Notes under the pieces: model-generated
Database searches by the model: none
What the model was told of the DNA's origin: nothing
Seen by the model: the letters and a program-made list of their open reading frames with translations, nothing else
Shown: positions 1,811 through 59,400 of the stretch, in pieces
Numbering within the stretch: position 1 is the stretch's first letter
Layout: each line of letters opens with the position of its first letter
Assembly (NCBI GenBank): GCA_036785375.1
Contig: JAWMAR010000058.1
Location: 7,502,001 to 7,566,000, forward strand
DNA: 64,000 nucleotides
Reading direction: 5' to 3'
Origin: Leucoraja ocellata
Taxonomy: Eukaryota
Made by a program: the position numbers and the translations under genes

Positions 1811-2160
1811 CATAAGTGATAGGAGCAGAATTAGGCCATTCGGCCCATCATCTCCTCCATTCAGTCATGGCTGATCTTTCCCTCTGAACCCCATTCTCCT
1901 GCCTTCTCACCATAACCCATGACACCCATACTAATCAAGAAGCTATCTATCTCTGCCTTAAAAATAGCCATTTACGGCCTCCACACCCTTCCACAGATTC
2001 ACCACCCTCAAACTGAAGAAATTCCCTCTCATCTCTGGAGAAAAGTAATAGGTGACATTTCAGGTTGAAACCCTTCTTCAAACTGAGGCTATGACCTCGG
2101 GTCCTAGACTCTCCCACCAGTGGAAACATTCTTTCCACATGCACTCTATCCAGGCCTGTG
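1811..2160 (-). mobile_element. CR1-type LINE 3' end with a nested Penelope pLTR fragment (~2030-2085)
   Basis: aggccattcggccc 3' tail motif; ORF 1947..2192 has [24 protein letters not shown]. Confidence 0.75.
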
Positions 2161-2481: not shown

Positions 2482-5400
2482 GTTTGTCTGCACTCTTTCA
2501 CCTATCCACAATGAAGCATATTTTGCTAGATTTTAAAATGCAAAAACAGCTTATGGGAGGATACTTCTTAAATCTATTTTAAGGTTGATAATTTCTACTG
2601 TCTAAGCCTCACGAGCTACAGCACAGTAAGAGGCCATTCAGGTAATTATTAACTGTGCTGGGCTTTTGATAGAGCTATGCTATTAATCCTACCCCTCCCT
2701 CAAATCTTCGGCTCCCCTTTTCTCCATTTAACAGGGTTGTTCTTTTATTTTAATTTTAGAAGATTCTACGGTATGCTTCCACTTCCCCATCTGACACTGC
2801 AATGCCCAGCATTATTTAAAAAAAACCTTTTATCCCTATTGTGGCTCTTCAGAACAATCATCCTGCAGTAGCATGGAGAAGTGTCTGCCTGTTTTTGGCA
2901 ATTAATTCATTGATTGTCACTGAAAAAGTGCATATGTAGACTCCGCAGTTCCACAGGGTATTGCTGGGTACAAGCTCATGCATGGAAACTGCTAGTGTGG
3001 TGACATTTGTGGTGTATTGCCGATTATGTATTTTGCCCCTAACCACCACTTGCAACTCATCCTTGGTGAGGGAATTTGGGTACCTCCAGAGACATGGCTG
3101 GGGAATGTGAGCTCGCCTGCAATCAATCTGCATAACTCCAGAATAATATAAAATATATAATTTGTATAGGATGTATAGGATGGAATTGCGGATGCTGATT
3201 TACACCAACGATAGACACAAAATGCTGGAGTAATTCAACGGGTCAGGCAGCATCTCTGGATGGAAGAAATGGGTGACATCAGTTTGAAGAAGAGTTTCGA
3301 CCTATTACTTTTCTCCAGAGATGCTGCCTGACCCACTGAGTTACTCCAGCATTTTGTGTCTATATATGTGATTTGTAGGTTGATTATGCATTTATATATT
3401 TTGTACACAGCATTTTATTTCATACGTTAAATAGCACATTATTTCATTGTAATCAAATATCATTGATATAGATACAATGTTCATTGCTTTCCCAAATGCT
3501 GTCTGAATCTTTGAATGGTCTCGCCAAAAAAATGATTTGAGCCATTCCTCTTGTAACCTTCAGTGAAGTCCATATACAGTGTCATCACTGAACTATGCCA
3601 GTTTTGTTTGTGATGACATGTGATGTCCCCCATGATGTTTGATTTGAACGGATATTTTCTTCATCATTCAGGTACCAGCCTCCTGCCCTGGCCATCTCAT
3701 CTTTATACTGGAAGGCTTGGCTGTTATTGTTAGTTGTAAATGCCTTCAATCCGCAAAATATTGGTGAGTTTCTAAGTGACCTGCAAATATTGATTTTCAC
3801 AAAGTACATTTTCACAAAATCTTTATGTCCCATGTGGTTCAGTAACTGTAAATGAAGCAAATTACAAAAACCTTTATATTAATGTTAGTTAGATTTGTTA
3901 ATATTCATTGTATTCACCTTTGCAAACTGTCCCTGTTGCATGAAAAAGCAGAATGTTTTCACCTTAGTTTTTGGAGCAAGTGACACAGCGCAGAAATTTC
4001 CAAGTTTGACTTGGAATTTCTCCAAGTCATGTCCTAACATACTCCAAGTATGTTAGAAGCTCTTGAGGTGCAGCAACTGGAGGAGAGACGATTTGCCTTG
4101 GAGCTTGGGGAGAGAAGTTGCAGTTACGACTGTCAAAATTAGTGATCGGTGGTATGTAATGCACTTTGCGTGCAAACATCAGCTGAGGGTGGAATCCAGC
4201 TTGTCTCTGGCACCATCTAGAGTCAAATAGCCAGATTCAAGACATTCCTTGTCTTGAATGATACACAAAGTCGCCATCTGGATGAGTTCTCAGGTTGCGC
4301 AATTGCATACCTGTGGGAGTGATAAAGGGAATGATGAAGAGAGTAATAAGCAGCTGTTGATTGGAAGTGTACACCCCAAATATTAGTGCCAACTTAGACA
4401 GGCTCATGAAAGAGCTATTGATATCTATAACAAAAGCTCTCATCTTGTTTATGATTCTGTGTGCGTGCGTGCTCCCAGAACTACGCCAAAACGTTACACG
4501 ATAGCGCTACAATCTTTCGACCACTTTACTTACAGTTGTCTTGTGGTGTGTTTTTTATCAAGTTTTGTTCAGATTGATGTTATATTTTACAAGTTATTCA
4601 CATTTTTAACTTTAGAAAATCTAGTTTGAGAAAGAATCACTTGAACTTGCAGTGGCAGTTACAGGTATGATGTCACAATGGGATCTAATTTACATAAACT
4701 GCCTATCAACAGTGTTCCACCCAGGGCAATGAGAGATTAGTTACATTGTTTTAGGGGAGGGGAGGAGGAGAAGTGTCATTTAAACATTGTGTTTAGTGGG
4801 GGTGTACGATGGGTGAGGAGTGAGAGAGGTAGGGAGGGGAGAGGGGTTATGGAGGGAGCGAGTGACTGAGGGTAGGGAGTGACTGAGGGTAGGTGAAAGG
4901 AGAGGGAGGAAGAGGTGAGGGAGGGAGTGGAGGAGGGGTGGATGTGAGGGGAATAGGTGAATGGTGGAAACGGGTAGCATTGGGGGAACGGGTGAGTGGT
5001 GCAATATTGCGTTTGGGGAACGAGTCACAACGGGTCCCACTTGGTCTAGTATTGTTCTAAAATCATCTCAGTTGCTTAAGCAAGGCTCTCACAAGGTTTT
5101 AACAAAAGTGAGAGACTCAGCTTGTGATCCCTTGTCTGCAAACTTACCTGCATCATGTAAAAGGCATCCTTTCCCCTGGCAAAAGCATCAGCTGCTGAGA
5201 GGTTCCCCACCCTCCACTTCTCAGAAATTGGTAAGTCCATATTTCCAATTCCAATTCCAATCCAGTTCCAAGGTTTTGACTTGCTAACAGAACTGGCACA
5301 AGCAATTGACATTGGTTTAGTATTGATTTGTTATTGTCACGTGTACTGACATATGGTGAAAAATGTGTGTGCTATCCAGTCAAATCAAACCATACGCAAG

Positions 5401-8400
5401 TATAATCAAGCCATTACTCTAGTCCAATAGGTAGTGCAAAGAGAAAATACCCGAGTTCAGAATGTAGTGTTATTTTTAGGCCTCCTTCGGTTGTGGCTAA
5501 CCATGGGTGTCTCCAGAGTTCTATTCCCTATATGGTGGACGCCTGTGCGTGACTTTATTTAACGTGGGGAGACTGGTGCACAGACAACCACCCCACGGTC
5601 CTTGACAGATCTGGGTCAGGATCCAGTGGCATGGAATCCAAGATGACCGGAGACCCTTTAATGCTGCAGCCTTCATCCGCCTTCCCAGCCGTTGCGATGC
5701 TCCACTAAGGTCAGCCATCGTCTTTCGCCTGTTCCACCGTTGAGGTCTTGGTTACTCTTTGTCAGAGACCTCCCCCTCGATCTTACGCCATGGGTGGCCC
5801 TACCAGGAACACAGCTCCAGACAGCATCGCTCTCAGGATATCAGGTCCACACATTGTGGTAACAGAGGCAGTGTAGGCCGTAATGTGGTAGGTTGGGAGA
5901 TCAGGATTACATCCTTAGCCTATGAAACTATCCTGATAATAGCGGGGAAGAAGCTGTTCCCGAATCTGGTGGTATGTACTTTCAAGCTTTTATATCTTCT
6001 GCCTATTGGGAAAGGGGGAAAAGAGGGAATGACTGGGGAGTAAATGGTCCTTGATTGTGTTGGCTGCTTTTCGGATGGTGTGTGATTTAAAAAAAAAATC
6101 TGAATAGTTTTATTTTGATGTAGAGAATGCTGATGAAATGTGTTTGTCTGCAGGACTGGCTGCATGGGAAGGTTACCCTACTCTGAAGATGTTGATGGAA
6201 ATGGTGATGACAAAGTGAGTTATTTTACCATGGAATAAACATTTCTTACAGGAGATTTGATCTGGGCACTTCTTTCCCTGGTGAAGTGTTGTTGTTGTGT
6301 GTGAGGAAATCCAAGTAGTGAATCTTTAGCATTTCCTACGCTCTGGGTGAAATAATTTTGTATCTCAGATCTGAATTACTCATTCTTATTGTGTTATTGT
6401 GTCCCCTGGTTACAGACAGCACATTCAGTGGAAACATCAATGCTACATTTAGCCCCATGAGTGTTTTGACAAGATCTGCTCTCATCCTTCTAAACTCAAT
6501 ACAGTTTCTCCTCCTACAACAAACCAACCACCCCATATTTTAAAATGCTTTTTCTACCTCCAAAGTAACGCTTCTACTCATGAAGACCATCAACACTTTG
6601 TTCCTCTGATCAGAATCATGTACACGGATGCATGTGTGCAAAGTGTTTACATGTGACATAATATTTATCCTCCTGTTGAAAGAAAAGGTACACAGCTGAA
6701 GTTCTTTGTTGATATTAATTGGCCAACTGCATATTTGCCTGTTCCTAGCTCTTGAAAAGGGATGAGAGGAAGCTGACGTCCAACATAAATACTGAAATAA
6801 CCATTTGGTTTCAGTAGACAGCTTCTGTACAGTGCCTCTCACATAGTTGTGTAATCTGCACAGGTGAGCAACTGGTGCCTAATCTACTCTGCATATCTCT
6901 AACATCAAAACCGCAAAAGTTGGAGGTAGTTATCAGATCGGGCAGCATTTGCAGAGAGGGAAGGAGAGTTAATATCTCAAGCCAATGACCTTGCATCAAA
7001 AGGCTCTGATGACGTGATCAACCTGAAATGTTAACTGCTTCTCTGTCCTCAGATGCTGCCTGACATGCTGAGTATCTCCAGCATTTCATCGAGTCATAGA
7101 GCTATCCAGCATGGAAACGGGCACTTTGGCCCACCATGTTCATCCCAACCAAGTTGGCGAGTGCCATTTTCTTGCATTTGCCCAATAACACTCTAAAACA
7201 CTTCCTATCCCTATATCTGTCCAAATGTGAAAGTCGTAACTATTCACTTCTATAGCCTCCTTTTATAGCTCATTCCAGATATGGACCTTCCTCTGTATGA
7301 AACAGTTGCCCTTGACGTCCCTCTTTAATCCCTCGCCTTAACCATATCCCCTTTGGTTGTAGAATCCTCTACCCTGGGTAAAAGACTGAGTTTTCACATT
7401 ATTCATGTTCTTCATGGTCTCTACACCTCAATAAGGTCACACCCCAACCCCCTACGCTTCATAGAAAAAAAAAACATATTCAGCCGCTCCCTATAACTCA
7501 AGCAAGCAAGTCCAGGTAATGACCAAGTGAATCGCTTCTGCACCCTTTCCAACCTAATGACATTGAACCTATAGCTGATCGACCAAAACCGCACACATCA
7601 CTCCAAATGCAGTCTCACTGATGACCTGTTCAGCTGCATCATGATTTCCCAACATTTTTACTCGATACTCTTCCCTCCTCACCATGCTATCCACCTGACA
7701 TGCTACTTTCAGGGAACCATGCATTTATGCACTAAGATCTCTTTGGTCTACAATAATCTCCAAGGCTCTATCATTTATATTCTGTAAGTCCTGTTCAGTT
7801 TTCCAGCATCTGCAGTTTTTCTTATTTATCAATTAATGTTGGTGACACCTTGCTACATTTGTCCATGAGACATGGCAGAATTACGAAGGGGACCAAGTAT
7901 ATGAAAACACCTGATTGTGTTCATGACTGTATAATACTTTTGCTTTTCTACTTTCAGCAACTTCTCCTACCCTCAGTGCACTGTGACTGATGAGGAAACC
8001 AGAAATGAAATGATCACTCGGGAGCTGCAGATGTCACAGAGAGAAAAGCAGGAGATTTTGGCTTTCGAAAGCCATCTAGCTGCTGCATCGACAAAGCAGA
8101 CCATCACCGAAAGCAACAGCCTGCTGCTATCGCAGCTGACCAGCCTCGACCCTCAGTGAGTGTGTGGGGAGGGGCGGCAACATTGATGTCCTCCCATGAA
8201 TATGAGAGTGTATCCTGGTCAATGACCTTGTATCACTGCTTCTCATTCTCTTCTGGTACTTACTCCTCATCTCACAAATAGCAACACCAGCAAATGTGAT
8301 GCACTTGAGAGTGCATGAGAGCTCCATCTATTTATTTGATGGATTGTCAAGCCACTCAATGTCCTGATCATTATTTTACTTCATCACCCTCTAATATAAG

Positions 8401-14400: not shown

Positions 14401-17400
14401 TGGAGCCATACAGCATTGGCAGAGGCCTTGGCCCACTGCATTATTGAAGAAAAAATATAGTAAAAGAACACAGGTCGGGTGAAAAAGGGGGAAAGCAAAC
14501 TGGAGTAGCTTGAGTATTCTATAATGTGGCTGAAATAAAATGCATTTATGGGTGGAGGGTTTAATGCCTTCATATACTCATGCAATAAATTATAAATGCA
14601 ACAAAATTTGTGGATTTTTATCATGCCTTTACAGAATAGTATCCCGTCATTCAAATACACTGAAGCTTAATCACTATTGTAATGTCAGAAAGATAGCACC
14701 AATTACCAAGAGCAAGTTTCCACAAGCAGCAATATGGTTAACGCCCGATAATCTGTACTTTTAATTATGCTGGCTGTGGGATAAATATTCCACAGGGCAC
14801 TGCAGATCCCCTATCTCTTCAACAAAATGATGCTCAGGGATCATATTTGTGAGTAAGATGGGACTTTTGTTTATTATTGTGAAAATGCAAAGTTCAACAG
14901 CGAGGTAGTATCATTATATTGCACTGACTTGTCAGCTTAGGTAATGTACTCGAGTTTCTGGAGGGGTTTTGAATTATCTAAATGAATGATCACAGTCAGT
15001 GCACAGCAGTCTTTGCACCCTTGCACTTGCTGCGTGGGCTGTGGCAGCATTTCCTCCAAGAGCAGGGCTTTTCACCACTTGGTGGCGCTGGATTCCAGTT
15101 TTTGTGCACCTTCTCAGGAGTGAATCCTGTGCTGATCTGTTACTGGGTCTGGTGTGTTAAACTATTGAGGATTTAACCAGATTGGGGAATGGTGTGGTAC
15201 ATAGCCAAAAGAGGGAGAAAAGACTAGGAACATACAAGAGATAAAATGCTGACATGAAAATGTTGCCGTTTATTTGAGTTGTTTCATTTTTAAACAATTT
15301 ACTTATTAATTTTGATTTGCAGGCAATTCATGTGGAGACCGATCCCCAGACCATCAGTGCCTATGTTATTTATTTGTCACAGCACGCACCAGTAGAGGAG
15401 CAGGTTCAGCACAACGACCTTGCCTTGGTAGGAATAATGTGACGGGTTTGAATGGTGTGGAAGCAAGAATAAAATAATTGAATAGTGTCAGAGCATGGTC
15501 TGCTGATTCACCCAGCAGTATATTTAATAAGATGCCACATAATAGGTTTTGACGGCGCATTAGGCTGAGGGTGTAATATTACTGTGGATAGTGGAATGGT
15601 TAACATCCAAGAGGCATAAATGAGTAAACTGGAACCAGGGGTTGGAAGTTGACTGCTTAAAACTGAGATGAATGGGAAATTCTACTGAGAGTTCTGAATC
15701 TTTGAAATTCAGTATCCTGGAGTGTTGTGGAAATTGTGTCATTAAGCACGTTCAAGACTGGGTTAGGCTTTTGGATTGCTGGGAATCGAGAAGTAAAGTC
15801 GGGCATGACAAAATAACAGAACAGGCTCGAAGGGCCGAATGGCTGCCAGCTTCTTTCTCTTATGTTTTTGTGGGTTGTGAGACAAGCAGACCTATTTCCT
15901 CTCTGAATGACCTACAGCTAAACACCGATTATACACTACCTGAATATACATAAATCCCAGTTGTTTGGCATCTTGTTATTTCCGGCCTGTTTCTCATGCT
16001 CCTGTTAAACTCAGCGGGGGCTCATTTACCATGCTTCCTTTAAACTTACCAGAGCTCTGGTTCAGTTGCTTTCTTTAAAAACAGAATGATCCTACTTTCT
16101 GCGTTCCTTTAGGCTTATCTGGGATCGGTTTCTCATGCTCTCCTTAAACACACCATGCTCTATTTCCCTTTAATGTCACTGGGCCTTCATTTCCTGCACT
16201 TCTTTAAGCACATCGAGGTTCTGTTCACCAATGTCCTGTTCTCTGATTAAACATACAGGGTTCCCTTTAAACTAACCAGTGTCCTATTTTTCTTGCTACT
16301 TCTACGTGCATTGTGTTTAACTGGAAAAAAATTATGTTAAAGTGTAACAACTTTGAAGAATTGAATTTGAATTGTGTTGGGGTACTAATATGATTAACAT
16401 ACAATATAGTCTGAAAGCTCTGTATAAGAAGGAACTGCAGATGCTGGTTTAAATCGAAGATAGACACTAAATGCTGGAGTAACTTTGCGGGACAGGCAGC
16501 ATCTCTGGAGAGAAGGAATGGGTTTCGGATTGAGACCCTTTTTCAGACTGATTCTTCAATCTGAAGAAGGTCTCGATCTAAAACGTCACCCATTCCTTCT
16601 CTCCAAAGATGCTGCCTGTCCCGCTGAGTTACTCCAGCATTTTGTGTTTATCTTTAGCCTGAAAGCTCTACTAGGTTAAGAGCAAAGATCCTATAGCAGA
16701 GCTCTCTGCTATAGGATCTTTGGTTAAGAGAGTTTTGCTGCACTGCATGTTCCATTGTGTTAATTAGTTGAGCACCTTGTCTCATCGACCTCCTTTTATA
16801 TGCAAATTTAACCAAAACAGTAGAAGTGCTGCTAATGGGAAAGGTGGGTAACGAAACACCATACTTTCCCTTGTTGTAATGATGTATATTTTTTGTGACC
16901 CATCATTTTGATCACTCAGGATGTTGCTCGCTTGATTGTCGAGAGGTCCACCATCATGACTCACCTCTTCGCCAAACACTCCTACAGATCGGAGTGCGAG
17001 TCAGTGTTGGTGGCGCTCATCGCCATCTTCTCCCGATACGTGAAGCGGATGCGGAAGACGAAGGAGGACGAGGAGGTGTACAGCTGGGTGAGTGGGTCCC
17101 CTCAGTACACTGGCTGGTTACACAGGCTCAATCTCCCGCGGTGGTGCTGACCACATGGAGCTGGTGGAGCACGTTACCGACAACTCTGTCACTGGATTCA
17201 TGAACTACTCGATGATGTGTGTTGTCAATTGGGTGTCCTGGTGTCTGCTGGGGATCATGCCACATCTCCATTCTCTTCATAGTCCATTATCCAAGTGAAG
17301 AATCTCATTCAGAGTTTGTGAGAAAATAGGAGATTCGTATGATTGAAGGAAATCTAAAACCAAAGGTGTAATTGTTTTCTTTAAAGTAGAGATGTTTAAA

Positions 17401-20400: not shown

Positions 20401-23400
20401 TTTCAGGACGTCAGTCCCCATTCGTTCTGAAGCTGCGAGAATTGGTTGTGGAAAGTTGCTCAAGTTTGATATAATTAGCAACTTCTCTTGGATAATACGA
20501 AAATGGAAAGTGTGGGCAATGTAATGAGAATCCTGTTCTGAAATTGTTGGAGAGTTTTGGAAAGTATACTTTGGTCCTAGTGTAGCTAACGTGAGGTGCT
20601 TTTGAGATTGGTTATGAATAATAGAATGTACTATTTTCTCAAACACCTCACCATGATAAATTGAAGGCTTTGTGGGTTGATCACATGTTAAAGAATGTGG
20701 TGCTGCACTAAAGTGTCTGTATGACAAGGCTATTTATTCATGGCTGAGAGAGAAGGCCACTTGTAGCATTGCACCACAAGAATGTGGTTTAGTGCAGGAG
20801 CATTTCCATTACATTGCCTGTGCCATCTTCTATGCCCTCTGGGGTTGAGTGTTTAGATACATAGATACATAGAAAATAGGTGCAAGAGTAGGCCATTTGG
20901 CCCTTCGAGCCTGCAGCTCCATTCAATATGATCATGGCTGATCATCCAACTCAGTATCCCGTACCTGCCTTCTCTCCATACCCCCTGATCCCTTTAGCCA
21001 AAAGTGCCACATCTAGCTCCCTCCTAAATATAGCCAATAAACTGGCCTCAACTACCCTCTGTGGCAGAGAGTTCCAGAGATTCACCACTCTCTGTGTGAA
21101 AAATGTTTTTCTCATCTCGATCTTAAAGGATTTCCCCCTTATCCTTAAGCTGTGACCCCTTGTCCTGGACTTCCCCAACATCGGGAACAATCTTCCTGCA
21201 TCTTGCCTGTCCAATCCCTTAAGAATTTTGTAAGTTTCTATAAGATCCCCCCTCAATCTCCTAAATTCTAGGGAGTACAAACCGAGTCTATCCAGTCTTT
21301 CTTCATAAGAAAGTCCTGACATCCCAGGAATCAGTCTGGTGAACCTTCTCTGCACTCCCTCTATGGCAATAATGTCCTTCCTCAGATTTGGAGACCAAAA
21401 CTGTACGCAATACTCCAGGTGTGGTCTCACCAAGACCTTGTACAACTGCAGTAGAACCTCCCTGCTCCTATACTCAAATCCTTTTGCTATGAAAACTAAC
21501 ATACCATTCGCTTTCTTCACTGCCTGCTGCACCTGCATGCCTACTTTCAATGACTGGTGTACCATGACACCCAGGTCTCGTTGCATCTCCCCTTTTCCTA
21601 ATCGGCCACCATTTAGACAATTGTCTGCTTTCCTGTTTTTGCCACCAAAGTGGATAACCTCACATTTATCCACATTATACAGCATCTGCCATACATTTGC
21701 CCACTCACCCAGCCTATCCAAGTTACCTTGCAGCCTCCTAGCATCCTCCTCACAGCTAACACTGCCCCCCAGCTTAGTGTCATCTGCAAACTTGCAGATG
21801 TTGCCTTCAATTCCCTCGTCCAAATCATTAATATATATTGTAAATAGCTGGGGTCCCAGCATTGAGCCTTGCCGTACCCCACTAGTCACTGCCTGCCATT
21901 GTGAAAAGGACCCGTTTACTCCTACTCTTTGCTTCCTGTTTGCCAGCCAGTTCTGTATCCACATCAATACTGAATCCCCAATACCGTGTGCTCCAAATTT
22001 GCATACCAATCTCTTATGTATTTTTGTATTATTGAGACAACACCCATCAGATTAAAACTTTTACTTCCTCCATTATTTGTGCATAGTGACTGCAATTTGT
22101 ATCATTTACAAGGTGTACTGCACCAATTTGTCAATACTACTTTGTAGTATCCTCTAACTCTGAAACTGTACTGCTGAGATGGAGAAGGATGATGGCCACA
22201 TGAGAACATTACCTGCAAGTTTTCTTCCTAAGTCCTACATCATCTTGCCTTTGCATATTATCATTGACCGATCATTATTGATCAGTCCATATTCCCGATC
22301 TCCCAAACAACACTGTTGTTTTGTCACGTGAACTTAAGCAGTTTACAGAGGTGGTCCACCATCTCAAAGACAAATAACATGGGGTTATAAGTTGTGGTCT
22401 TGCTATGTCCTAAGAATAAGTTCATCTGTCCAACATATGTAGAAAGAGAGAGTTCTGCTGTTAATGTCTGTAGAGTGATGCTGCTTGATCTCAAACTCTG
22501 AATTGAAGTAACATTGAATTTTCATGCCAATAACATGATACTTCAGCTCATGTAAGTGTTTTCTTGATATCTTTTTCCAGAAATCTCTCTCGAAAATCTT
22601 ACAAATGTTGCTGGTATGTAATTGTTTTTGAATTGTGTGTTTTCAGGAGACAGTGATTTCTACCACCTTCTCGACGTGTGGTTTCCGGACAAGAAGCCTC
22701 TCCCAACGGCATTCCTAGTCGACACTTCAGAAGAAGCACTGCTTCTCCCTGACTGGCTGAAACTCCGCATGATTCGCTCAGAAGTATCTAGATTGGTGGA
22801 TGCAGGTGAGTAAATACACTTCTTTATGAGATCCAAGTTGACACCATTCTGTATATTTTACCAGGTAAAATAATCTTTCATGTTTAACGAGTTCAGACTG
22901 TTTTCACTTGATACTGCTTTGATTCCGGTGAGTCACCTTTTAAAATTTTGGCTCCAAATTCATCCAGGCTAGAGAAGAGTCTCCTTGATATTAGGTGTAA
23001 TGAAAGTGGCTACAGTGACATGAAGCAATGTGGTCACAAAAGATTTTTAAAGAGGATGGGACCAAGCTGATTTAGAGCATGATAGATGCATGAAGGTGAT
23101 GAGCGTGGCTGTGATACAGTTGACCCCACTGAACACTACAAGACAAGATATCAAAACTTGTGTCTGTTATGATGGGCATAACAATATGAGATTATTGAGA
23201 TTTATTTGTACCTTTTTATGCTATCTGACCCGTTGAGTTACTCCAGCACTTTGTATCTTTTGCTGATTTTCTTTCCTTGTTTAGAAATGTGAAAAGCAAG
23301 GTTTTCTGACCTATAGCCTATAGACATTATAGAATAAGACCTCCCAGTCAGATGATGGGGACCGGGAGGTTGGGAAACCGATGGGTTTCATTTGAGGTCA

Positions 23401-44400: not shown

Positions 44401-47400
44401 TATCTGCCGTTATGGGATTTGAACTTGTCTCTATGGATGTTAGCCCAATTTGTAAATTGCTGGGCCAGTAGCATGATGATTGTGGTTGCCAAAGCCCTGT
44501 CTTTTCTCTGTAAGAGCCGAAATAGAAAGACCAGCGTTTATTTCGGAAGTAAGTGCAGTTTTGATTTAATAGGCATACATTAAAAAAATAGTTCCTCTGA
44601 TGGGGAAATTCGTGTATAAAGGACGCAAGCCTAAAATTAGTGGATGACCATTTAATAGGGTAATCAAAAAACACTTGTTTGCTGTCAGGGAGAAATACTG
44701 TGGAATTCTGTCTCCCTGGAGCCTGGGGATTCTGGGGACAGACGGAAATTTTAAGGCTGAATCATTTCTAAGATAAGAGTATTAAAAGATTCACGGTGAC
44801 CATGATGCAATTAAATGGTGAAACAGCTTTGGGAGGATAAATGGTCCTTTCTGTTTATTTTTGTATTTCAAAATATCTATGTCAATTTGTGTATCTTTAT
44901 CTTTTGAAAAAGCTAATAGAATAGGGATCAATGTGTAAATCAGTACGTTTAAAATTCTGATCTTGTTCGGTAGTGGTTTGGATGGATTGTCTTTGATTCT
45001 TGTGTTAATCAGACGGTTCTTATATCCAGATTGCAGGTCAGCAAAGAATGCAGCTGCTTTCATTCCGACCCTGTCTTCTGGCGGTTCTCACTCACCAGTC
45101 AAACTGGACGACACTGCATCGGTGCATCGGCATACTGTTGAGTAACCAAGGGGGGCTCAGGTGAGTTGCAAACCAACAGCACAGGCTACAAATATAAGGC
45201 AACTTGCTCACGAACATTTCAAGCAGTTACAAAGGAAGTCTTGTCTAGGGAAGAACTGCAGATGCTTGTTTATACCAAAGATAGATACATAATGATGGCG
45301 TAACTCAGCGGGTCAGGCAGCATCTCTGGAGAAAAGGAATAGGTGACATTTTGGATCGGAACCCATCTTTAGACTGAAAGATAGAGAAGGCCAGAACAAA
45401 ACAGAAGACCTCGGGAAGGGTGGAATCTATAATGCCCCATTGTTGCATGGGGAAGATGTGCGAACAACAGGGAAACAAGGATGCAAACAGTGGAACTATT
45501 AGGAAGACTTGGGTTGGGGACATACATATCTGCACTGTAGCTTCTCATGGCTGTGCTCTTTACCAAACTACCTTCTGCTGCTATGCTAATGACCTTTCTA
45601 TCCTAAAGTTAGGAATGTTAAAGAGGTTGTTGATCTGTTTACACTATGTTCAGTTCAATTTGCATGTAGCAAGCACAATTTATGACACAAAAGTGCCATG
45701 CAATAACCAACACGTGGAAATCCTCTTATCTCTTCCAGAACAGGGTCTTCCACTCTCTTTGGGTCTGGTATTCATGATCTATTTCCTTTATTTTATTTGT
45801 AGGCTTGACCCTCCTGCAGCCCTGGATTTTCTTTGGGCCTGTACACGCATTCCTCGGATCTGGCAAGGACGTGACCAAAGAACTCCGCAGGTAGGATTGC
45901 AAATCAGTTGGCAAAGTGGAACTACCAGTTGTTGAGTCATTGAGAGAATGAAAATGTAAGACGCTTGGTTCTCTGAAGCATAAATTTACTTGAATATCCG
46001 GATAAGTGGACATTATCTGAAGCCTAAGATTTTAGAAATAGCCACCAGGCACTTTGTGTCCGTTCCACATTCTCCAAATACATGGCTGATCTTCTGCCTT
46101 GGTGCTGTTTTCTGTCATGATCCCCACCATAGCACCTTCTGATCTCGGTTTTGGATGAATTCAGTGACTGAACCCCCACAATTTTCTGGGCTAGAGAATT
46201 CCAGAGATTCACCAAATGCTGATTGAAAAACGTTCACCTCCTTTTGATAGAATGCAGGCCACACACAGAATTCAGGCCCAAATGTGGTCCCTTTCCTTTG
46301 AAGGAATGTAACATTGGAGACGGTCTAAACGAAATTCATCGAGATAATTCCTGGGATTAGAGGATTGTTCCATTAAGAGAGGCAAAACTGGTTTGGTCTG
46401 GAATCTTTGGAGTTAAGAGGAATGAAGGATGACCTTATTCAAGTGTGTAATGGATCGAAAGGGGCATGACAGCAGAGATGCTGAGATGTTTGCACTATTG
46501 GGAGAGCCTTGAAAGTGGGGACATAGATAAGGTAAGGGGCCAGTCATTTAATACTGAGGTATGTAGAAATTTCTATTTTCAAAGGTTGGCGAATCTCAGA
46601 CAGACAGAAATGGAAGCTGGATGATTCAAAGTGTTTAACATGGAGGTCAATATTTTATTGATTGAGAGGGTTGTGGGGATCAAGCACAGAAGCGGAGATG
46701 AGGTCTGGGGTTGATCAGCTGTGATCACAAGAAGTCAGGAGGTGCTGCATACTCCTGCCCTGGTTTTCGTGTGTTCATGTTCCTGATTTGCATTTCCTTG
46801 CTTTTGTACAACTTGATCTTGACTCAGCCCTCAGTGAAATCAAATCTGCAACTCCCTGTTTCCTTGCAAAGTTGCAGGGGTATTTGAAATCCAGCAGAAA
46901 TAGTGCAACATCTGCAACAGTTGCCTGCAGGAGCAGAGAATGAACATGACAGTGATGTAGAGTGTAAAGATTAGTCATTCAGCCTCTATGCTGCCTGGTG
47001 ATATCACAGCTTCTTTATCCAAACACCTTCCAACTATATAGGGCATCCTTAAGAACACATCCACCAAAAATCTAATCAGACATCATCTAGTGTGCCGCAC
47101 GCTTTATTTCAGTTAAGATACAAATTACTTAACTAAATGATAGAACATGATTCTTGTAGTGTGTTGGTAATTCCTGCCCTCTGGTCGGTGACTGTGCATG
47201 AATCCAACTGATTCAATGCTGCTGAATAAAGACTTTGTGTGTTAATATTCCTGAGTGCCTTAACCCATCAGAACTCTAAATAACAATGCAGGTTATCGAA
47301 AACTGCAAATAATTAGCTGGAGTAGTAGAACTGAAAAGAGAAGGTTAAATTTGAAAGTCTAATAGTGCGAATGTTGGAAGTCTGAAATAAAAAGAGAAAG

Positions 47401-50400
47401 TACTGGAAACATTCAGTAGCTCAGGCGGCATCTTGAAAAGAGAAATTGAGTTAATGTTTCAGGTTGCAGACTCCTTTGGGTTTTGCCTGGAGTGTTTCCA
47501 GCAATTTCTGTTCTTACCTCCGTATCGAAACCTGCAGCCATTGAAGTACGAAGTGTAATGTGGGCAGTGTGTGAGTCAGTTTGCAATCACCAGGCTCGCA
47601 CTATCAACTCTGCCCTTGATGGTCAACTGGCAATGCATCACGGTTGGGATTGAGACGGTAGCTACCGAGAGTGTCCTTTGCCTTTGTAGAAACACACTAA
47701 GGAGTATGTCCTGTGTTTGAAGAAGAGTGAGCTCATCAGCCTGGTGGACATCATTCTTTTGGAGTCTGAAGCCAAGGTCCACGTTGGGACTCCCATCAAG
47801 AAACCCTCTGAGGACGTCACTGGCACCCTCATCCGATCTCGAATTCCCTTGTTGCTCAGCTGCTGCCATGGCAATTTGGATAACATCAAGAAAGTGACAG
47901 AGTATCTGATCAGTTGCATCAAGCAAGGGGGTGAAAGGTAAACAAAACAAAAGCATTTATTCATGTTTTGTCTTGGGGTGCACAGAAATTAACGCCCCAT
48001 TTGCTAGATAAGGGCGGCATGGTGGCGCAGCGGGAGAGTTGCCGGCTTACAAGGCCAGAGACCTGGGTTCGATCCTGACCACGGGTGCTGTCTGTATGGA
48101 GTTTGTACGTTCTCCCATTGACCGGCATGGGTTTTCTCTGAGATCTTTGGTTTCCTCCCACACTCTAAAGACGTACAGGTTTGTAGGTTAATTGGCTTGG
48201 TATAAAAATGTAAATTATCCCTTGTGTGTGTCGGATAGTGTTGGTGTGCGGGGATCGCTGGTCAGGGCGGACTTAGTGGGTCGGAAGCCAAACTTTAGTT
48301 TAGACCATTTATCAGGAGCAATGTACTAACTACTAGAATGGTTTTGTTTTATTTTATTGATATACAATGTGAAAAGACATAAAATGTGGATCTGAATGCA
48401 CAAAGCTTAGTGTTCTATGTAGTAAGAATAAATATTTTGTAATTTCCTAGATGCTAGGCAGATACTGAGGGCACAGGAAACTGGATGCTGGAATCTTGAG
48501 CAAACAAGAACGTTTCCTTCTTCTTTTCTCTCCTGCTTTCTCATTCTTTTTCTCTCGCTCTTTCTCTTGTCTTCCTGGCTGAAACTGCCGTATATTAAGG
48601 AGGAGGGTGATGGACTGATCCAAAAACAGCTAATTGGACACCGCTCTTGTTCCTTTGGTTGTGGCCTCAGCTCAGTCCACAACACCGTCCAGGGTACTAG
48701 GTGTGTTCTGGCAGCCAGGCACTGTCCACTGTGTTGGTATTCCGCTCATCCTGGCCTGTCTGCTGTTAGCAAGCATCAGAGCGCCACACAAGGGAAGAGA
48801 TGACACCACAATACATATAAAATCTCTTTGGATTCTCCTTAATGTTAACTGCCAGTGAGATCTCATGCCCCATTTTTGCTCTCTTAATTTTCTTCTTATG
48901 TGTACTCCTCAATCTCCTGTACTCCAGAGATGCATTTGATGCCAGCTGCCTATTCCCGACTCATGCCTCCTTTTTCTTAACCAGAGCCTCAATGTCTCTC
49001 ATCATCCAAGGTTCCTTGCCCTTGTCCTTCACTATTGCAGGACCACCCATACCTTGAACTCTCGCCATCACACTGTTAAAAGCTTCCCATTTTACGAAAA
49101 GTCCCTTTGCCCGCAAACAACTATTGCAATTTCCCGTCTTATATAAAGTTGGCCTTGGCCAGTTTAGAACTTTAACATAGACCAGGCTTCTCCATTTTCC
49201 ATAACTATTTATTTACTGCTTATAGAAATGTGGTCGCTGGTCCCAAATGTCTTGCCCACTAGTACATCACTCACTTGCCAATTCCCTAAAAGTAGGTCAA
49301 GCTTTGCCCTTCCCTTGGAGGGCCCTCTCTCTACATGTTGCCCGAGATAAAATTCCTGAACACACTTGACAAATTCCACCCCATCTAAGACCTTGACACT
49401 ATGGCAATCCCAGTCTAAATTGGAAAAGATGAAATCCCCTACTATGACAACCTCATTAATATTGCAACTGTCTGCAATCTTCCAGCATATTTGTTCCTCT
49501 CGATCCTGTTGACTATTTGGGGGCCTATAGTACAATCCCAACAAAGGTGCTCACCCCCTTTCTATTTCTCATTTCCACACATCTTGCCTCAGTGGGTGAT
49601 CTTTCTGTAATGTTATCTTGGACTACAGGTGGTTTATTCTCCTTAAAGAGTGCAGCAGGACATCCTCCTCTGTTATGCCCACCTCTACCTTGCATACTAC
49701 ACATGGACCCTAGAACATTAAGCTGTCAGTGCTGTCCCTTAATTAGGTTTTTGTAATAACTATAACGTCCCAATCCCACAATCCCATCCCTGCCCTAAGT
49801 TAATTGGATTTACATGTCAGGCATCTTATATTGAAATAAATGCAATTTAATCCAACTGCTGTTCCTTGCTCTCTGCTGCGCTTCTCCCTATCATGTCCAT
49901 TGAACTTGCTGTCAATGATATTTGTACCAACATCCAGTCACTCACCTTTCTCACAACTGCATTTCATCCTGTCCTCTGGCTGTCCTTAGTTTAGACCCTG
50001 TTGAGTAGCGATAGCAATCATTCTTGTTTCTGGGATTACTGCAGACTGGAATCTGACGTCTATTATTTAGAAATCCCAGTGGTTCAACATTTGACTTGCC
50101 GGTGATGTTTCGTGTACTCCCTTCAAATTTATCAGGACTGCCATTTCCATGCTCGTGTTAAGTACACGGGAGCCCAGTTTCCCACCATTTCTTTAAGCAC
50201 AGTGTCCCGTTTCCTTTGCTCCTTTGAAAAGTCACTAAGGCTGTCTTTCCAACGCCCTTCCAAGTCACTCAGCTCAGTGGCAAATTTAATAGCATCTTTT
50301 TGTGAATTAAAAGTCTATTGGAGTATTAACAGGAATAACCTATAACAGTGCAGAATATCTGCCAGTACGGCACCACCAATGTGCCTAATTAATTGAGTTT

Positions 50401-53400: not shown

Positions 53401-56400
53401 GCCCTGGTAAGAAATTCTGCCATACTAACCTGACAGATGCCTGGTGCACTATTCACTAACTTGTCTGGTCTCAGATGGAGCCTGTGGTGTCAGGGGGAGA
53501 ATGAGTCTGCTAGAAACTGAGAACCTGCCCCCATCTGAATAGATCATGGTTGAAATGCGTCATAATTCCCATTTACCTGCATTGCAGTGAGGGTTTCTCC
53601 TCCTCTGCCGTCTCGGGTTTTGAGCTTCAAACCCCCAATTACTCTTGAGGTGATAACAAAATTCTGCGGTCTCTCTCCAATCCTACCATTAACAAATTTA
53701 GTTTTCTCTTGGCTATTGCCTCACAGTTCCAGAGACCCGGGTTCTAATCTGATCTCTGGTGCTGCCTGTGGGAAGTTTGCACGTTCTCTCTGTAATCACA
53801 GTTTTCTTCAACAATGCAGGTTGGTGGTTTAATTCGATAATTGCCCCTAGTGTAGATAAGTGGTTGAATCTAGGGGGAGTTGCTGGGAATGAGGGAAGAA
53901 TGAAATGGGATGAGTGTTGGATTAGTGTAAATGAGTGATTGACGGTCTGTACGGACTGAGTAAGCTGAAGGAAATCCCAGATTTTTGGGGGAAATAGTTT
54001 CAACTGATCCAGGTACCCTCTACGCCTCAATCATATCTCCCTTAAACCTCTCTGTTCCAAAGTAATCAACACAAACCCATTCCGTTCTCCTGGTAATTAT
54101 AACTCTCCAACACCCCTGTGAGCTTCCTGTGCACCCTCTCAAGTGCCATTGCATCCTTTCCTTTAGAACACTGACAAAACAAAAATTGTTAGTTTGAGAT
54201 TGGAAGTTTGAAATTGACACCACAGTTTCAACAGCTTTTTCGGTGAGAATGTACCATATTTTTCCACCTGTGTTGCGACACACTTACTCCAGGTTATTTT
54301 AAGGTTATACTACCTGTTTCTTGACTCTCTCCACTTGAGCAAATCGTGTGAAGAGAGGGGCTTTAATTGTTTTAAACACTCTTTACCCTTCTGTGCTGAA
54401 CAAGTAGGTTTCACCAGTTAAATAGTCAGAGGGCACAGGCTGTCACCATTCAGGCTATCAATCACATTACTGTAAAATGGGCATGTCCTGTGAAACAGCA
54501 CCTCAGCATGAAAACAGAACTGGTGGGGGATTAATCATGAGGTACTGCAACAGGCCTCAGCTGGAATGCAGGTTATAAAACATAATTCTATGTTTTTTAT
54601 TTAAACAGAACTATGGAAAATACTCCAGACTGCTTGCTTCCTTCATCAATAAGTTTGTGCATTTTATTCACAAGTTTATAACGTTCAATGCAACAGCAGC
54701 TGTGCCGTTCCTTCAGAAGCATTCAGATGTTCTCCAGTAAGTAGCCAATATGATGTGTTGTAGAGTAAGTGGCCCTCTTAATGAGGGTTAAGATAATTAA
54801 TGACTGTTATTTATCAAGATTACCCCCTTACCCAATCCCACAGGGGGCGGTGCGGTGGCACAGCGATAGAGTTGTTGCCTTACAGCACCAAAGAACCGGG
54901 TTCAATCCTAGCTATGGGTGCTGTCTTCAGAGTTTGTATGTTCTCCCTATAACCACGTGGGTTTTCGCCAGGTGCTCCGGTTTCCTCCCACACTCCAAAG
55001 ATGTACAGATTTGTAGGTTAATTGGCTTTGGTTAAATTGTAAATTGTCCCTGGTGTGCAAGATAGAGCTAGTGTACAGGGTGATCGCTGATCATCGCTGT
55101 AACTCTAAACTAAAACTAAAAAGAACTCGGTGCGCTGATGGGCCTGTTTCCGCACTGTTTCTCAAAAGTCTAAAAATGCACTCAGTTCTTGGATCGTAAG
55201 GTGAATCGGCTTTCAGTTAGTCACTGGTGCCTGAAGAACAATAGTTTATAATTTTATCTTGCTTTGTACCGGTAACAATTAATATATGGAATGCAGGTTC
55301 AATGTGTTGGGGCTGGTCCAAATACCTGGGAAGGGACCAGGTTGCGAGCCAGGTAAATTTAGTTTAGAGATACAGCATGGAAACAGTGCCTTCGGCCACC
55401 GGCTCTGCACTGACCAGTGATCCCCGCACATTAACACAATCCTTAATCCACAAGGAACAATTTTTACATTTACCAAGCCAATTAACCTGTGCGTCTTTGG
55501 AGTGTGGGAGGAATCCGAAGATCTCAGAAAAAACCCACGCAGATCACGGGGAGAACGTACAAATTCCATAGAGACAGCACCCGTAGTCAGGATCGAAACC
55601 GGGTCTCCGGTACTGCATTCGCTGTGAGGCAGGAACTCTACTGCTGCACCACCGTGACCGTGCGTGGCAGCTTTCCCTGGTGTAATATCCAAAGAGTTGC
55701 TGCACAGATCCAGAGGTGCAGTTTAGACATTCACAGGAGCTGAATGATGCCCACATTGGCACTCCTGAAATGATTGGTAAATGGGCAAGGGTTGTAATTT
55801 CATATAGCATTGTTCAGGATCCTGAACGCAGTCAGAATCTTTGCTTGGACTGGAAATAATTTTCTAATTTTCTCCCAACAAAACAATAATAATTAACAAC
55901 TTGCAGCAGCAGTGGCTGGTTGTGAGGCTGCTTCTCCTCTGTGTCTTGGAGGTGTGCCTACTAATATATGGTAGGCAGCATATTGCAAGATAAGGCTGCC
56001 TGAAGGAGTCTGGTTGTGGTGGACAGTATGTCATTCAATCCAGAGTGCAGGTCCTCCCCAGTTTACGTCTTACGGACATCCACATAGATTCAAGCGAATG
56101 ATTTTTGGGAGACCAGTGGGATGGATTACGGCTGCAGGCATCTTCAGCCGCGTGGGTTACGGCTGCAGGCATCTTCAGCCGGCTTTTCTGTTTGCCGTCT
56201 CTCCCCACGCCGCCCTGAGCTGCAACAATCAGGGGTTTGGGTTGAGCTGAGCTTATTCTCCTACTCACTCACTGCGTCAGTGAGGACAGTTAGCAGCCGC
56301 TCCCCCACGCCTGCTCGCTCTCCCATCTCGCCTGTTTCTGTATCTTTTCCCAAACACTATTTTGGTGTAGGTTACACAGAAAAGCTGGAGAAACTCAGCG

Positions 56401-59400
56401 GGTGCAGCAGCATCTATGGAGCGAAGGAAATAGGCAACGTTTCGGGCCGAAACCCTGTTTCGGCCCGAAACGTTGCCTATTTCCTTCGCTCCATAGATGC
56501 TGCTGCACCCGCTGAGTTTCTCCAGCTTTTCTGTGTAACCTTCGATTCTCCAGCATCTGCAGTTCCCTCTTAAACACTATTTTGGTGTATTTCTGACATG
56601 AACAGTTCAGGTTACGAGCAGTTCTCTGGAATGGAATCTTGTTGTAACCTGGGGTCTACTATCTTTTTTTATGAAATCCTACCTCTTACAAATCAATATC
56701 GGGACAAGTTGGGGTGGGGGGGGGGGGTGGGGGGGGGGGGGGGGGGGGGGGGGGGAGGGGTGGAGGTGTCAAACGCATTTAGCCCAAAAGTGTATAAATG
56801 GTCATTTGTGACACGAGAGAAACCAATGTGCCCCTTATCAAGCAAAGCTAATGGTCCTTTGAAAAATAAAGATTTGCAATTATTTGGATCATTATGTTCA
56901 TCAGGGAAGGAAATCTGCTGCTCTTAAGTTGGTTTGACCTATTAATGGCTCCATGTGGCTTAGTAAGCATTCACTTGTAACAAGAGTTACTCTATTAAAA
57001 GAGAACAAGAATAAAAGAAGCTTGACTAACCATTAGCAGCCTGAATTCAGGCAGAGCAGAGCAGTTAACCTTACCCTTGTTTACATCTGGGTCCATGTGC
57101 CTAAATTGGAAAAGCTGACTCACCGTCTAGTCAAGCAAATGCTAAACATGCACACTGAGAATGAGATGGTATCTTACAGGCAGGGTTCCAGACTCCCCCA
57201 CCACAGTACATGGAACAGTTCTGTGTCACCCGAAGGGCAGACCGTGGTAATAAAATAGTTGTACTGTGGCTACAGGAGTAGGTCAGAGGACTGGAATCCT
57301 GCGGAGTAACTAGCCTCCAAATTCCTCAAAGCCTGTTCACCATCCGCCAGGAATGTGGTGGAATACTCTCCATTTGCACAGATGAGTGCAGTTTTAATAA
57401 CACTCAAGATGCTCAACACCACACAAAATATTGAAGTCCGCTTGATAGGCATCTCATCCACAACCAATCACTCACTCCATCACTGATGCACAGTAGCAAC
57501 AGTTTGTACCATCTAATAATGTACAACGGCAATTTTACTGATTGCAAGGATTAGGGTCGCAAAAGCATGGGAACACCACCTCCTGAAAGTTGCCCTCCAA
57601 GCCACTCACCACCTGACTTGAACATATATTGTCGTTGCTTCACCGTCATTGGGTCAAAATCCTGGAACTCCCTCCCCAACAGCATTGTGGCTCTACCGAC
57701 AACTCGAGGACTTCATTGGTTAAATAAGGCAGCTCACTGCCTCTATCTCAAGGGCAATTAAATGTATCTTCAGCAGGGACCAGACCCAATGAGGGCTCAT
57801 GGCATCAGGTCATATGTGGATAAGCAAACCACCTACTGATACCACCTGCAGTCCTGCATCAACTAATGAAGTGCAGAGAATAGAGTGGGAGATGTCAGTG
57901 TCCATTATAAGCAGCTTGGGGTCACAACCATAGTCTTGGTTGCCTGAACCTTGAAATATGTGGTAGTCAGACTGGTTCTGTGGTAATGTTGAGTGAACCA
58001 TTGTGATAATTGAACCCACTGGACTTCATCCTGACCAGTCACAGAATGATTACAGCACAGAAAGAGGCCATTTGGCCTATTGAGTCTGTAGCATCTCTAA
58101 TTAGTCCCACTCCACTGCCTTCCTCCTTTAGCCGTACAAATTATTTTAAAATATCTCTGTAATTTCTGTTTGAAGATCTGTCTGACCATACCTGTATTGG
58201 TGGGAGTGATCATTGCACAGTCCTTGTGAAGACAAAATCTGCCTTCACACTATTGGGTTCCGTGGCATGACTCTTATGGTCAATGGAATAATCTTGGATC
58301 AGAAATGGGAATCCTTGAGCCATCTTTAGTCGGGAGAATTATCCATTCTCAGCTTCCTCTTGAAGCCTTCAGCATCACAGAAGCCAGTTTGTGGGCAATT
58401 TTGTTCACTCCTGTGTCAAAAAAAGTAAATAAGAGCACATGACAATGGGCAACGGGACCAAGCATCATCCTGGCTGCGGTGCTGGAAATGTAAGCTTCAT
58501 GGTAACCGTGGGGACAGTACCACAGTCACTAATCAGAGCAAACTGTAGGCCTGAGTTCCCACCATGGCAACTGGACATAGCAAATAAAACAGAAACCCTT
58601 GGAAGGTCAGGCAGCACGTACAAAAAGAAACAGCTTTAATGGTTCATCTTCATGATCCTTCCTGAGAACTGTTAGTTTTGTATGTTTTTATTTCAGATTT
58701 CCAGAATCTGCAAGGTTCTTTTGATATTCAACAGTAGATTAATAATTTTTTACGGGTATTAGATTGTTGTGAACACCCATCCAGTTTACCAGTGTCTACG
58801 AGGGAAGGAAATCTGATGTCCTTCTCTTGTTTGATCTATATCTGACTCCAGATGTATAGTAATTTGGGCATTTTTTTTAAATGGCTCTGTAATCCACTCT
58901 GTTCAGTGGAGAGTGAACAATAAATTCTGACCTTGGCAGCAACACACACACAGCCCAAAAAATTAGTAGATTATTTTTTTTAAACTGTACAAATTAGCCA
59001 AGCTATCCTAACATTAACAGTCCACCTGAAAATGTGTGTAAAATTGCACAAGTATTTAAAAAAAGAAAACAGGACAAATTTAATCCAGCTGACTACAGGT
59101 CCTCTCAGGTTATGTATGCCCAAATTATGTACAGCTCAGACATGCAATCAAATGTTCCAGAGACTGGCTGGATGAATTTACCAGCTGCTGTTGGCATCTT
59201 CTGCCATCTGGGAACTCCGTTCATTTTGCCCTTCGTTGGCCTATATTTTTACTTATTTATTTGCCAGGTAGTTGCATTTCCAATTTGTTGAACTGTTAAA
59301 TTTACAATAGTTCTCATGAATGAATCGCTGCCCCCTGGGGAAGCCCCGGACTGCCCAGTCAGTCAAGTGTCAAGTTACAGAGGGACTTGCCAACAGTGCT

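Follow-up and report, generated by a model that had tools for sequence, protein, structure and literature searches.

Penelope-like elements (PLEs) often leave insertions in which an inverted, 5'-truncated copy lies next to the element and a tail of 30–40 bp extends one side only (PMC8557442; this and the other articles cited here are drawn on in extract). A rotifer example combines direct and inverted pseudo-long terminal repeats (pLTRs) with a 31-bp tail and a 9-bp target site duplication (TSD; PMC3846280). Pairs of hammerhead ribozyme motifs on opposite strands, about 100–700 bp apart, were reported in 2014 (PMC4209133), and the PLE protein of an anole, a predicted dimer, cleaves both strands and extends both of them; its reverse transcription begins at two internal sites, which delimit the tail (PMC11167929). 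How pseudo-LTRs and inverted ends are formed is stated to be unresolved in both PMC8557442 and PMC11167929. Here we describe a 64,000-nucleotide stretch of the genome of the skate Leucoraja ocellata (contig JAWMAR010000058.1, positions 7,502,001 to 7,566,000; hereafter the window), which contains six short hairpins made of the ends of such an element. We favour, with a probability of about 0.55, a reading in which these inserts are extremely 5'-truncated insertions of a Neptune-type PLE, each built at insertion by linking head-to-head two cDNAs, one started from each strand of a staggered cut.

A preliminary description of the window had put forward six fold-back inserts of one design, 165–235 bp long, and all six were found, starting at positions 3172, 16422, 29958, 38191, 40995 and 56370 and measuring 168–233 bp (Table 1). 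Each consists of one tailed arm, which ends at +126 to +129, and one tail-less arm, which ends at +90 to +95, the tail being a one-sided extension of about 35 nt. Positions are counted from the C of the CTGA(A/T)GA core as +1, with the preceding T as -1; the hammerhead is predicted to cut after +28, and the starts of the arms were read from alignments by eye with an accuracy of a few bases. Inverted-repeat pairs of 64–95 nt with 86–100% complementarity are present in five of the inserts. The remaining one, 40995, is visible only by BLAST and alignment, and escapes repeat finders because of the sequence lost from its tailed arm. An independent hairpin scan of the window returned ten peaks: five of the six inserts, an older hairpin around 7000, an inverted element around 36320 that is unrelated, and three weak signals. 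Direct repeats adjoin both ends in five of the six inserts, at the 13–18 bp originally claimed; among 300 random window pairs used as a control, three scored 10 or more, one of them reaching 18 and probably representing the 56370 element itself. At 3172 there is no abutting repeat, the best candidate failing to touch the right end. The 85-bp arms of insert 56370 are 100% complementary and meet at a blunt junction, and this insert is the youngest of the six.

The assignment to Penelope is confirmed by a single-arm, tail-less copy of the parent element, in which the end of a GIY-YIG endonuclease lies directly upstream of the same pLTR, about 100 nt from its hammerhead on the minus strand. The Pfam match to GIY-YIG (E = 1.6e-4, 22.3 bits) is slightly under the cut-off of 22.6. 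The closest database relatives of this fragment are Leucoraja erinacea proteins of 81% and 72% identity, followed by Chiloscyllium proteins at 56–60% (8 homologs of 68 candidates). Longer relatives contain reverse transcriptase (RT) motifs, a Cys-rich linker and GIY-YIG: the RT motifs are found in homologs of 49–58% identity over the alignment, the RT of the skate element lying outside the window, and the linker in P0002 (72% identical), P0004, P0006 and P0008, the window fragment beginning downstream of it. A layout of RT, Cys-rich linker and endonuclease is that of Neptune-like elements (PMC3846280), and a Cys-rich linker also occurs in Nematis.

The minimal hammerhead motif attributed to the pLTR was likewise recognised. 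Its core, stem II and palindromic ACGT are directly visible by eye, and stem II folds in five of the six copies tried, one of the six slices being off register by one base; it is a predicted ribozyme. Rfam returned no hammerhead at gathering level across the window, nor at E<=10 in 38100-41300. A match to MIR2118 in the same database (45 bits against a cut-off of 85) was attributed to hairpin shape alone, and folding of the single-arm RNA gave a stability that is not unusual (z 0.40). Pattern scans for relatives elsewhere yielded zero and zero hits in viral contigs, zero and then 15 loci in metagenomes and 10 in prokaryote genomes, but all 25 match over 21–35 nt only and were rejected as chance.

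All 12 arm ends at the junctions lie inside the hammerhead footprint (-9 to +27), bearing out the clustering at the ribozyme that had been noted before, and ten of them begin at +11 or further upstream and hence span the cut site. The six inserts have six different junctions. Only that of 38191 is symmetric, its centre at 38286 reading cttcag-a-ctgaag as previously given, and CTGAAGA is missing from 56370. The turning point is therefore a zone and not the single fixed point proposed at the outset. A palindrome scan of two single copies did not show the palindrome at -1, because both are mutated there. Nor do the copies fall into two sequence subfamilies, as had been thought: at least four variants were seen, plus an older relative. 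The centre of insert 16422 (16539-16565) holds two tandem 13-nt near-copies, each with one orientation of the central base, as though both cDNA tips had been retained.

Over positions +30 to +91, an arm's own partner is the best match for seven of the ten arms that have a full partner, and is tied for best for an eighth. A tree of 13 rows, from which four short or deleted rows were omitted (the 40995 tailed arm and three short singles), pairs the arms by locus at 29958 (87/89), 38191 (84/90) and 56370 (identical) and leaves the others unresolved; it contains no group of tailed or tail-less arms, and no left-arm or right-arm groups across loci. Six different junctions combined with the pairing of arms within loci speak for formation at insertion, and the hairpins were likely each made anew, contrary to the earlier suggestion of a non-autonomous hairpin family mobilised as a unit. 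The tail-less end is also present in the single-arm copy 39373 and is thus no side effect of fold-back. At 3172 and 29958 the tail-less arm goes about 30 nt beyond the upstream limit of the tailed arm. The arms of 3172 are moreover unlike at five of the 11 positions from +32 to +42 (+32, +36, +40, +41 and +42), the tailed arm having C32 and C40 as the 16422 variant does; these differences are weak evidence, from one old copy, for two templates.

Eight of the 17 placeable 5' ends in the window fall between -6 and +1, as does at least one end in six of the 11 insertions (the patch at 2029-2086 being excluded from both counts). A geometric truncation model tuned to favour this interval assigns it 4.5% per end at best, giving P = 3e-7 for the ends and 1e-4 for the insertions. 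The family was also followed in four of 24 listed sequencing runs, aligned at 80% likeness to a single 660-bp reference that represents one variant, the non-hairpin copy at 39290-39949. Two of these runs consist of contigs (X1, possibly the source of the window itself, and X4; about 66,000 contigs aligned in each) and two of RNA reads from oligo-dT and single-cell libraries only (X22 and X24; 18,082 reads in one and 31,605 in the other). Among the loose ends listed (24 of 2397), those best supported on the 5' side lie at -3 and -2, with 338 and 222 contigs in X1, 396 and 256 in X4, and 2050 and 1177 reads in X24; the smallest listed have 72 (X1), 111 (X4) and 852 (X24), and other positions are presumably lower. 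The loose letters in these three runs are AT-rich and agree at 0.32–0.33, as unrelated flanks would. In X22, 3030 reads have listed loose ends at -3, with letters that agree at 0.46 and include a G-run, which is the native continuation. Over 39290-39949 the single-cell reads of X22 show a strong bias to one direction, and some of them run on natively upstream of the hammerhead.

Two labelled opposite-strand joints stand among the 15 of 138 listed, one at +37/-2 and one from +7 to the endonuclease region; only the former is inside the pLTR, and it occurs in just 1–3 contigs. Nine of the 12 between-letter rows listed (from 118) have one side at -1 to -7, and in seven of these the other side is at +30 to +43. 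The hotspot of 5' ends, which precedes the ribozyme cut site by about 30 nt, seems to be a property of the family at large and not of the fold-backs. In open-licence papers we found no account of 5' ends favouring the hammerhead and no strong-stop model for PLEs (Repbase, Dfam and subscription papers were outside the search).

A 3' splice site, formed by the pyrimidine tract and the CAG before -1, was considered as a cause of the hotspot and judged less likely, since it agrees with the sequence but would place the ends at -1, and the top rows are elsewhere. If the true ends lay at -1, about 79% of apparent ends would be expected at -1 and 15% at -2; the observed excess of -2 over -1 is instead at least 3.1-fold in X1, 2.3-fold in X4 and 1.4-fold in X24, assuming that unlisted rows are smaller than those listed. 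Neither a common upstream exon nor a GT-AG skip was found among the rows listed; an intron of Drosophila Penelope ends at helix I (PMC4209133). The read alignment listed no site where many molecules begin or end, which is a weak test with fragmented libraries, and the run search showed no RNA holder among the runs listed.

In the proposed pathway, the two classes of arm end (+90 to +95 and +126 to +129) would correspond, by analogy with the anole protein, to two internal RT start sites, such that each arm is a separate cDNA; two start sites would also account for the tail-less end of the single-arm copy 39373. The 3'-OH groups of a cut staggered by 13–18 bp would each prime one cDNA, and each cDNA would extend back just 95–135 nt or so, to a preferred stop immediately before CUGA or inside the ribozyme. 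The two cDNA 3' ends would then be joined, either bluntly, as at 56370, or via short inverted homology, as at 38191 (TCAG-T-CTGA in the family majority), and fill-in would yield the target duplication. The resulting stubs would be dead ends, because they are without the sequence downstream of the RT starts.

We propose tentatively that the stop at -3/-2 may be the 5' end of the RNA, given the initiator-like sequence TCAGT found there. This motif resembles the initiator consensus. An initiator-like TCACT has been reported in a rotifer pLTR (PMC3846280), and the Penelope element of Drosophila contains an internal promoter. Second in rank as a cause of the stop, and the more doubtful of the two, is a block to RT at the ribozyme or at the pyrimidine tract. 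On a bolder version of the first idea, which we think rather unlikely, the stubs would be 'strong-stop' DNA: the RNA would start at an initiator 3 nt before the hammerhead, and RT would prime 95 or 130 nt downstream and run off the cap. A jump to the RNA 3' end, itself set by ribozyme cleavage of the downstream pLTR, would produce a copy with an open reading frame (ORF) between pLTRs (pLTR-ORF-pLTR), while a jump that failed would result in one lone stub; a head-to-head pair would follow when both target strands act as primers. If true, this would explain pseudo-LTRs, tails and inverted ends by a common principle, and PLEs would have a strand transfer resembling that of LTR elements.

Several points weigh against the two-cDNA reading and the hotspot associated with it. 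The interval from -6 to +1 was picked for the pattern itself, and only one of the five independent single-arm copies in the window starts within it (P 0.21), such that the window alone does not show a hotspot in single-arm copies. Reads on one reference stand in for a direct genome-wide census. At -4 that reference does not carry the majority letter of the family (97% of the X1 depth has another), so that ends at -3 to about -6, together with other variants that continue natively, all pile at -3; the pile at -2 is the cleaner signal because the mismatch cannot produce it. The pyrimidine tract upstream aligns badly, with an X24 depth of about 75–310 per bin against about 2600 in the endonuclease region, and the drop in depth (7924 at +20, 676 at -4 and 146 at -14) therefore proves nothing alone. 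The kind of joint is not given for most between-letter rows, some of which may be tandem go-backs, and none of the 15 of 138 joints listed has RNA-read support. Finally, the two-start geometry is borrowed from a protein of the Poseidon clade, and arms that share private variants, such as those of 38191 at +80, fit fold-back equally well.

Fold-back of a single cDNA is the likeliest of the alternatives. Here RT would copy from the tail to the hammerhead region, after which the end would snap back on a local palindrome and extend itself, the second arm being cut or stopping at the tail boundary, perhaps through the element's own endonuclease; the tail has indeed been ascribed to endonuclease-mediated resolution (PMC8557442). 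Both arms carry the same variant in four of the five hairpins that are readable in both, the 38191 arms share a private letter, and the symmetric centre at 38286 sits on the TCAG-T-CTGA palindrome of the family (the majority letter at -4). However, that same centre would require a loop of 1 nt, and the 56370 junction is blunt and without microhomology. A second template is also needed in 3172 and 29958, where the tail-less arm outreaches the supposed template, and the variant letters differ between the 3172 arms. Simple fold-back leaves the tail-less end unexplained, because the same family-typical end occurs in the single-arm copy 39373, and overall we consider it unlikely. The related proposal that RT stalls and folds back at the ribozyme may still hold, but the hotspot lies 2–3 nt upstream of CUGA, away from the cut site, and most of the records that show it continue into unrelated sequence.

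The two-cDNA reading also has to be set against three accounts that are less probable still. Cleavage by the ribozyme might set the turning point, with a template beginning at the cut (+29), the cDNA running off its end and being joined to a second product. Two tailed arms that begin at +24 and +27 fit this, as do the seven of 12 listed joints with a side at +30 to +43, but the ten arms that begin at +11 or further upstream must have been copied from uncut RNA, the main pile of loose ends is at -3/-2 with +28 to +30 not among the top rows, and cleavage is dispensable in vitro for the anole element (PMC11167929). It is thus improbable as the general rule, and may be a minor second route within the two-cDNA explanation. 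Still less probable, and largely refuted, is a master hairpin, that is a non-autonomous element, one per subfamily, which is transcribed and then moved in one piece by the PLE enzyme. This would explain the common design and size, and the target duplications flanking the entire unit, but not the different junctions, three of which are found within the commonest variant alone, nor the failure of left and right arms to form groups. No RNA reads stand behind the strand-switch joints listed, and the contig support for the one inside the pLTR is minimal, although contigs cannot display perfect hairpins; furthermore, the stubs lack the region downstream of the RT starts on which the anole protein depends (PMC11167929). 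We give least credence to the idea that DNA repair or gene conversion added the inverted arm once the insertion was in place, and that misalignment at the border of the pyrimidine tract created the apparent hotspot. A repair-type patch of pLTR sequence does exist locally (2029-2086), and the tract does align badly, but both arms are enclosed by the target duplications in five of six inserts, the loose letters at -3/-2 in X1, X4 and X24 have no G-run, unlike the native continuation in X22, and the reference mismatch cannot generate the pile at -2.

Further copies of the family, and of an older relative, are included in Table 1. The patch at 2029-2086 places 58 bp of pLTR sequence where about 25 bp of a CR1-type long interspersed nuclear element (LINE) would be, and has two private letters in common with the arm 3278-3361, 1.2 kb away. 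It is likely a locally templated repair patch and, because of the private variants shared with the tail-less arm of insert 1, was left out of the tally of independent insertions. Two short, isolated stretches, 7799-7817 and 41300-41332, match only the tail and may be remnants of further copies or chance.

Table 1. Hairpin inserts, single-arm copies and related sequences in the window. Arm starts are given relative to the first base of the hammerhead core (+1).
Feature	Coordinates	Strand	Tailed arm	Tail-less arm	Target duplication	Remarks
Hairpin insert 1	3172..3361		3172-3279 (-), from +24	3278-3361 (+), from -6	none clear	12-nt deletion within hammerhead of tail-less arm
Hairpin insert 2	16407..16669		16422-16551 (-), from -5	16552-16654 (+), from about -5 to -9	15 bp, 1 mismatch (16407-16421, 16655-16669)	
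Hairpin insert 3	29945..30179		29958-30056 (-), from +27	30071-30166 (+), from -3	13 bp, 1 mismatch	14-nt unassigned spacer between arms
Hairpin insert 4	38175..38431		38287-38415 (+), from +1	38191-38285 (-), from -1	16 bp, 2 mismatches	centre 38286
Hairpin insert 5	40981..41176		41076-41162 (+), from -1	40995-41075 (-), from +10	14 bp, exact	~43 nt lost inside tailed arm
Hairpin insert 6	56352..56589		56457-56571 (+), from +11	56370-56456 (-), from +8	18 bp, exact	
Single-arm tail-less parent fragment	39373..39895	-				GIY-YIG endonuclease end 39578-39892, stop, pyrimidine-rich spacer, hammerhead 39473-39446, pLTR end
Single-arm tailed copy	45244..45500	-				~128 nt presumed native sequence upstream of hammerhead; 5' end placed from an 11-bp repeat with 1 mismatch
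Single-arm tailed copy	28334..28425	+				from about +41
Single-arm fragment	62524..62585	-				from -2; 3' end lost
Short tail-less fragment	23218..23260	+				from about +50
Patch of pLTR sequence (-5 to +52)	2029..2086	-				inside CR1-type LINE; microhomology at both ends
Old hairpin of diverged relative	6914..7087					CTGATGA core; centre near hammerhead start
Possible decayed hairpin of older relative	47388..47545					27-nt arms, weak
Old single-arm copy of older relative	24844..24935	-				

The window contains other features that are separate from this family. The inverted element at 36162-36481 is 320 bp long, with 65-bp terminal inverted repeats (86%), inner inverted repeats and TTAA on its left; it is unrelated to the Penelope hairpins and looks like a non-autonomous DNA transposon, which we take to be of Kolobok or piggyBac type. 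There are many LINE fragments, presumably CR1-like (20951-22051, 59676-60283, 49209-49550 and others), among which a LINE RT is recognisable at 20954-22051 (Pfam RVT_1, E 2.5e-13) and a LINE endonuclease at 49212-49550. The segment 47650-47935 translates in one plus-strand frame like a coding exon or a decayed gene piece. A GC-rich, CpG-island-like region with a GCT/CAG repeat at 27400-28100 is probably the start of a host gene, and two assembly gaps (324 N in total) lie beside simple repeats in 61619-61959.

The hotspot of 5' ends is a useful mechanistic lead, while the remainder of the findings are mostly ordinary. The family, which is matched by about 66,000 contigs per run and has two fixed 3' ends as well as a preferred 5' end, offers a large natural data set, in which two-cDNA priming, fold-back and strand transfer predict different, countable outcomes. 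Hairpins of this kind are also liable to score as microRNA precursors or to pass for miniature inverted-repeat transposable elements (MITEs).

In twin priming by L1, both target strands prime cDNA and end-joining takes place inside the TSD, the two arms being different, non-overlapping parts of one RNA. Both arms of the skate inserts instead cover the same segment, so that they may be made in a similar way without being that structure. The inserts resemble non-LTR retrozymes in being short, non-coding, hammerhead-bearing and related to PLEs (PMC7229834; bioRxiv 10.64898/2026.07.22.740005). Retrozymes as described there are, however, direct tandem repeats with canonical hammerheads and circular RNAs, whereas the skate inserts are inverted pairs with broken minimal motifs; an identity with retrozymes was rejected, since the copies in the window are inverted pairs or singles and not direct tandem repeats with complete hammerheads. 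The motif itself follows the minimal hammerhead of PLEs (PMC4209133) in its CUGA(A/U)GA core, the extra base before stem II, the closing G-C pair, GAAA, the palindromic 15.2-16.2 positions and the lack of helix III. Compared with the opposite-strand pairs in the same article, the skate motifs directly adjoin or overlap each other, the majority have been mutated or partly lost, and only about 2 bp of helix I can be drawn. In the anole element PAc (Frangieh et al. 2024, PMC11167929) the distance from the hammerhead down to the two 3' end points delimiting the tail is similar, at roughly 100–150 nt, but PAc belongs to the Poseidon clade whereas the skate element is of probable Neptune type, and inverted copies or a fixed 5' end are not treated for PAc in the extracts of that article.

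The closest match is with canonical endonuclease-containing (EN+) PLE units (PMC8557442, PMC3846280, PMC2377424), with which the skate inserts share the head-to-head inverted copy, the tail on one arm, a TSD around the whole unit, 5' truncation and short palindromes at the 5' end of the pLTR. The inserts are such canonical insertion units reduced to their ends, and their layout has already been published. They differ from the described units in that both arms are minimal (80–130 nt) with no ORF between them, in TSDs of 13–18 bp compared to 8–10 bp in the rotifer examples, and in having 5' ends that pile up at one spot.

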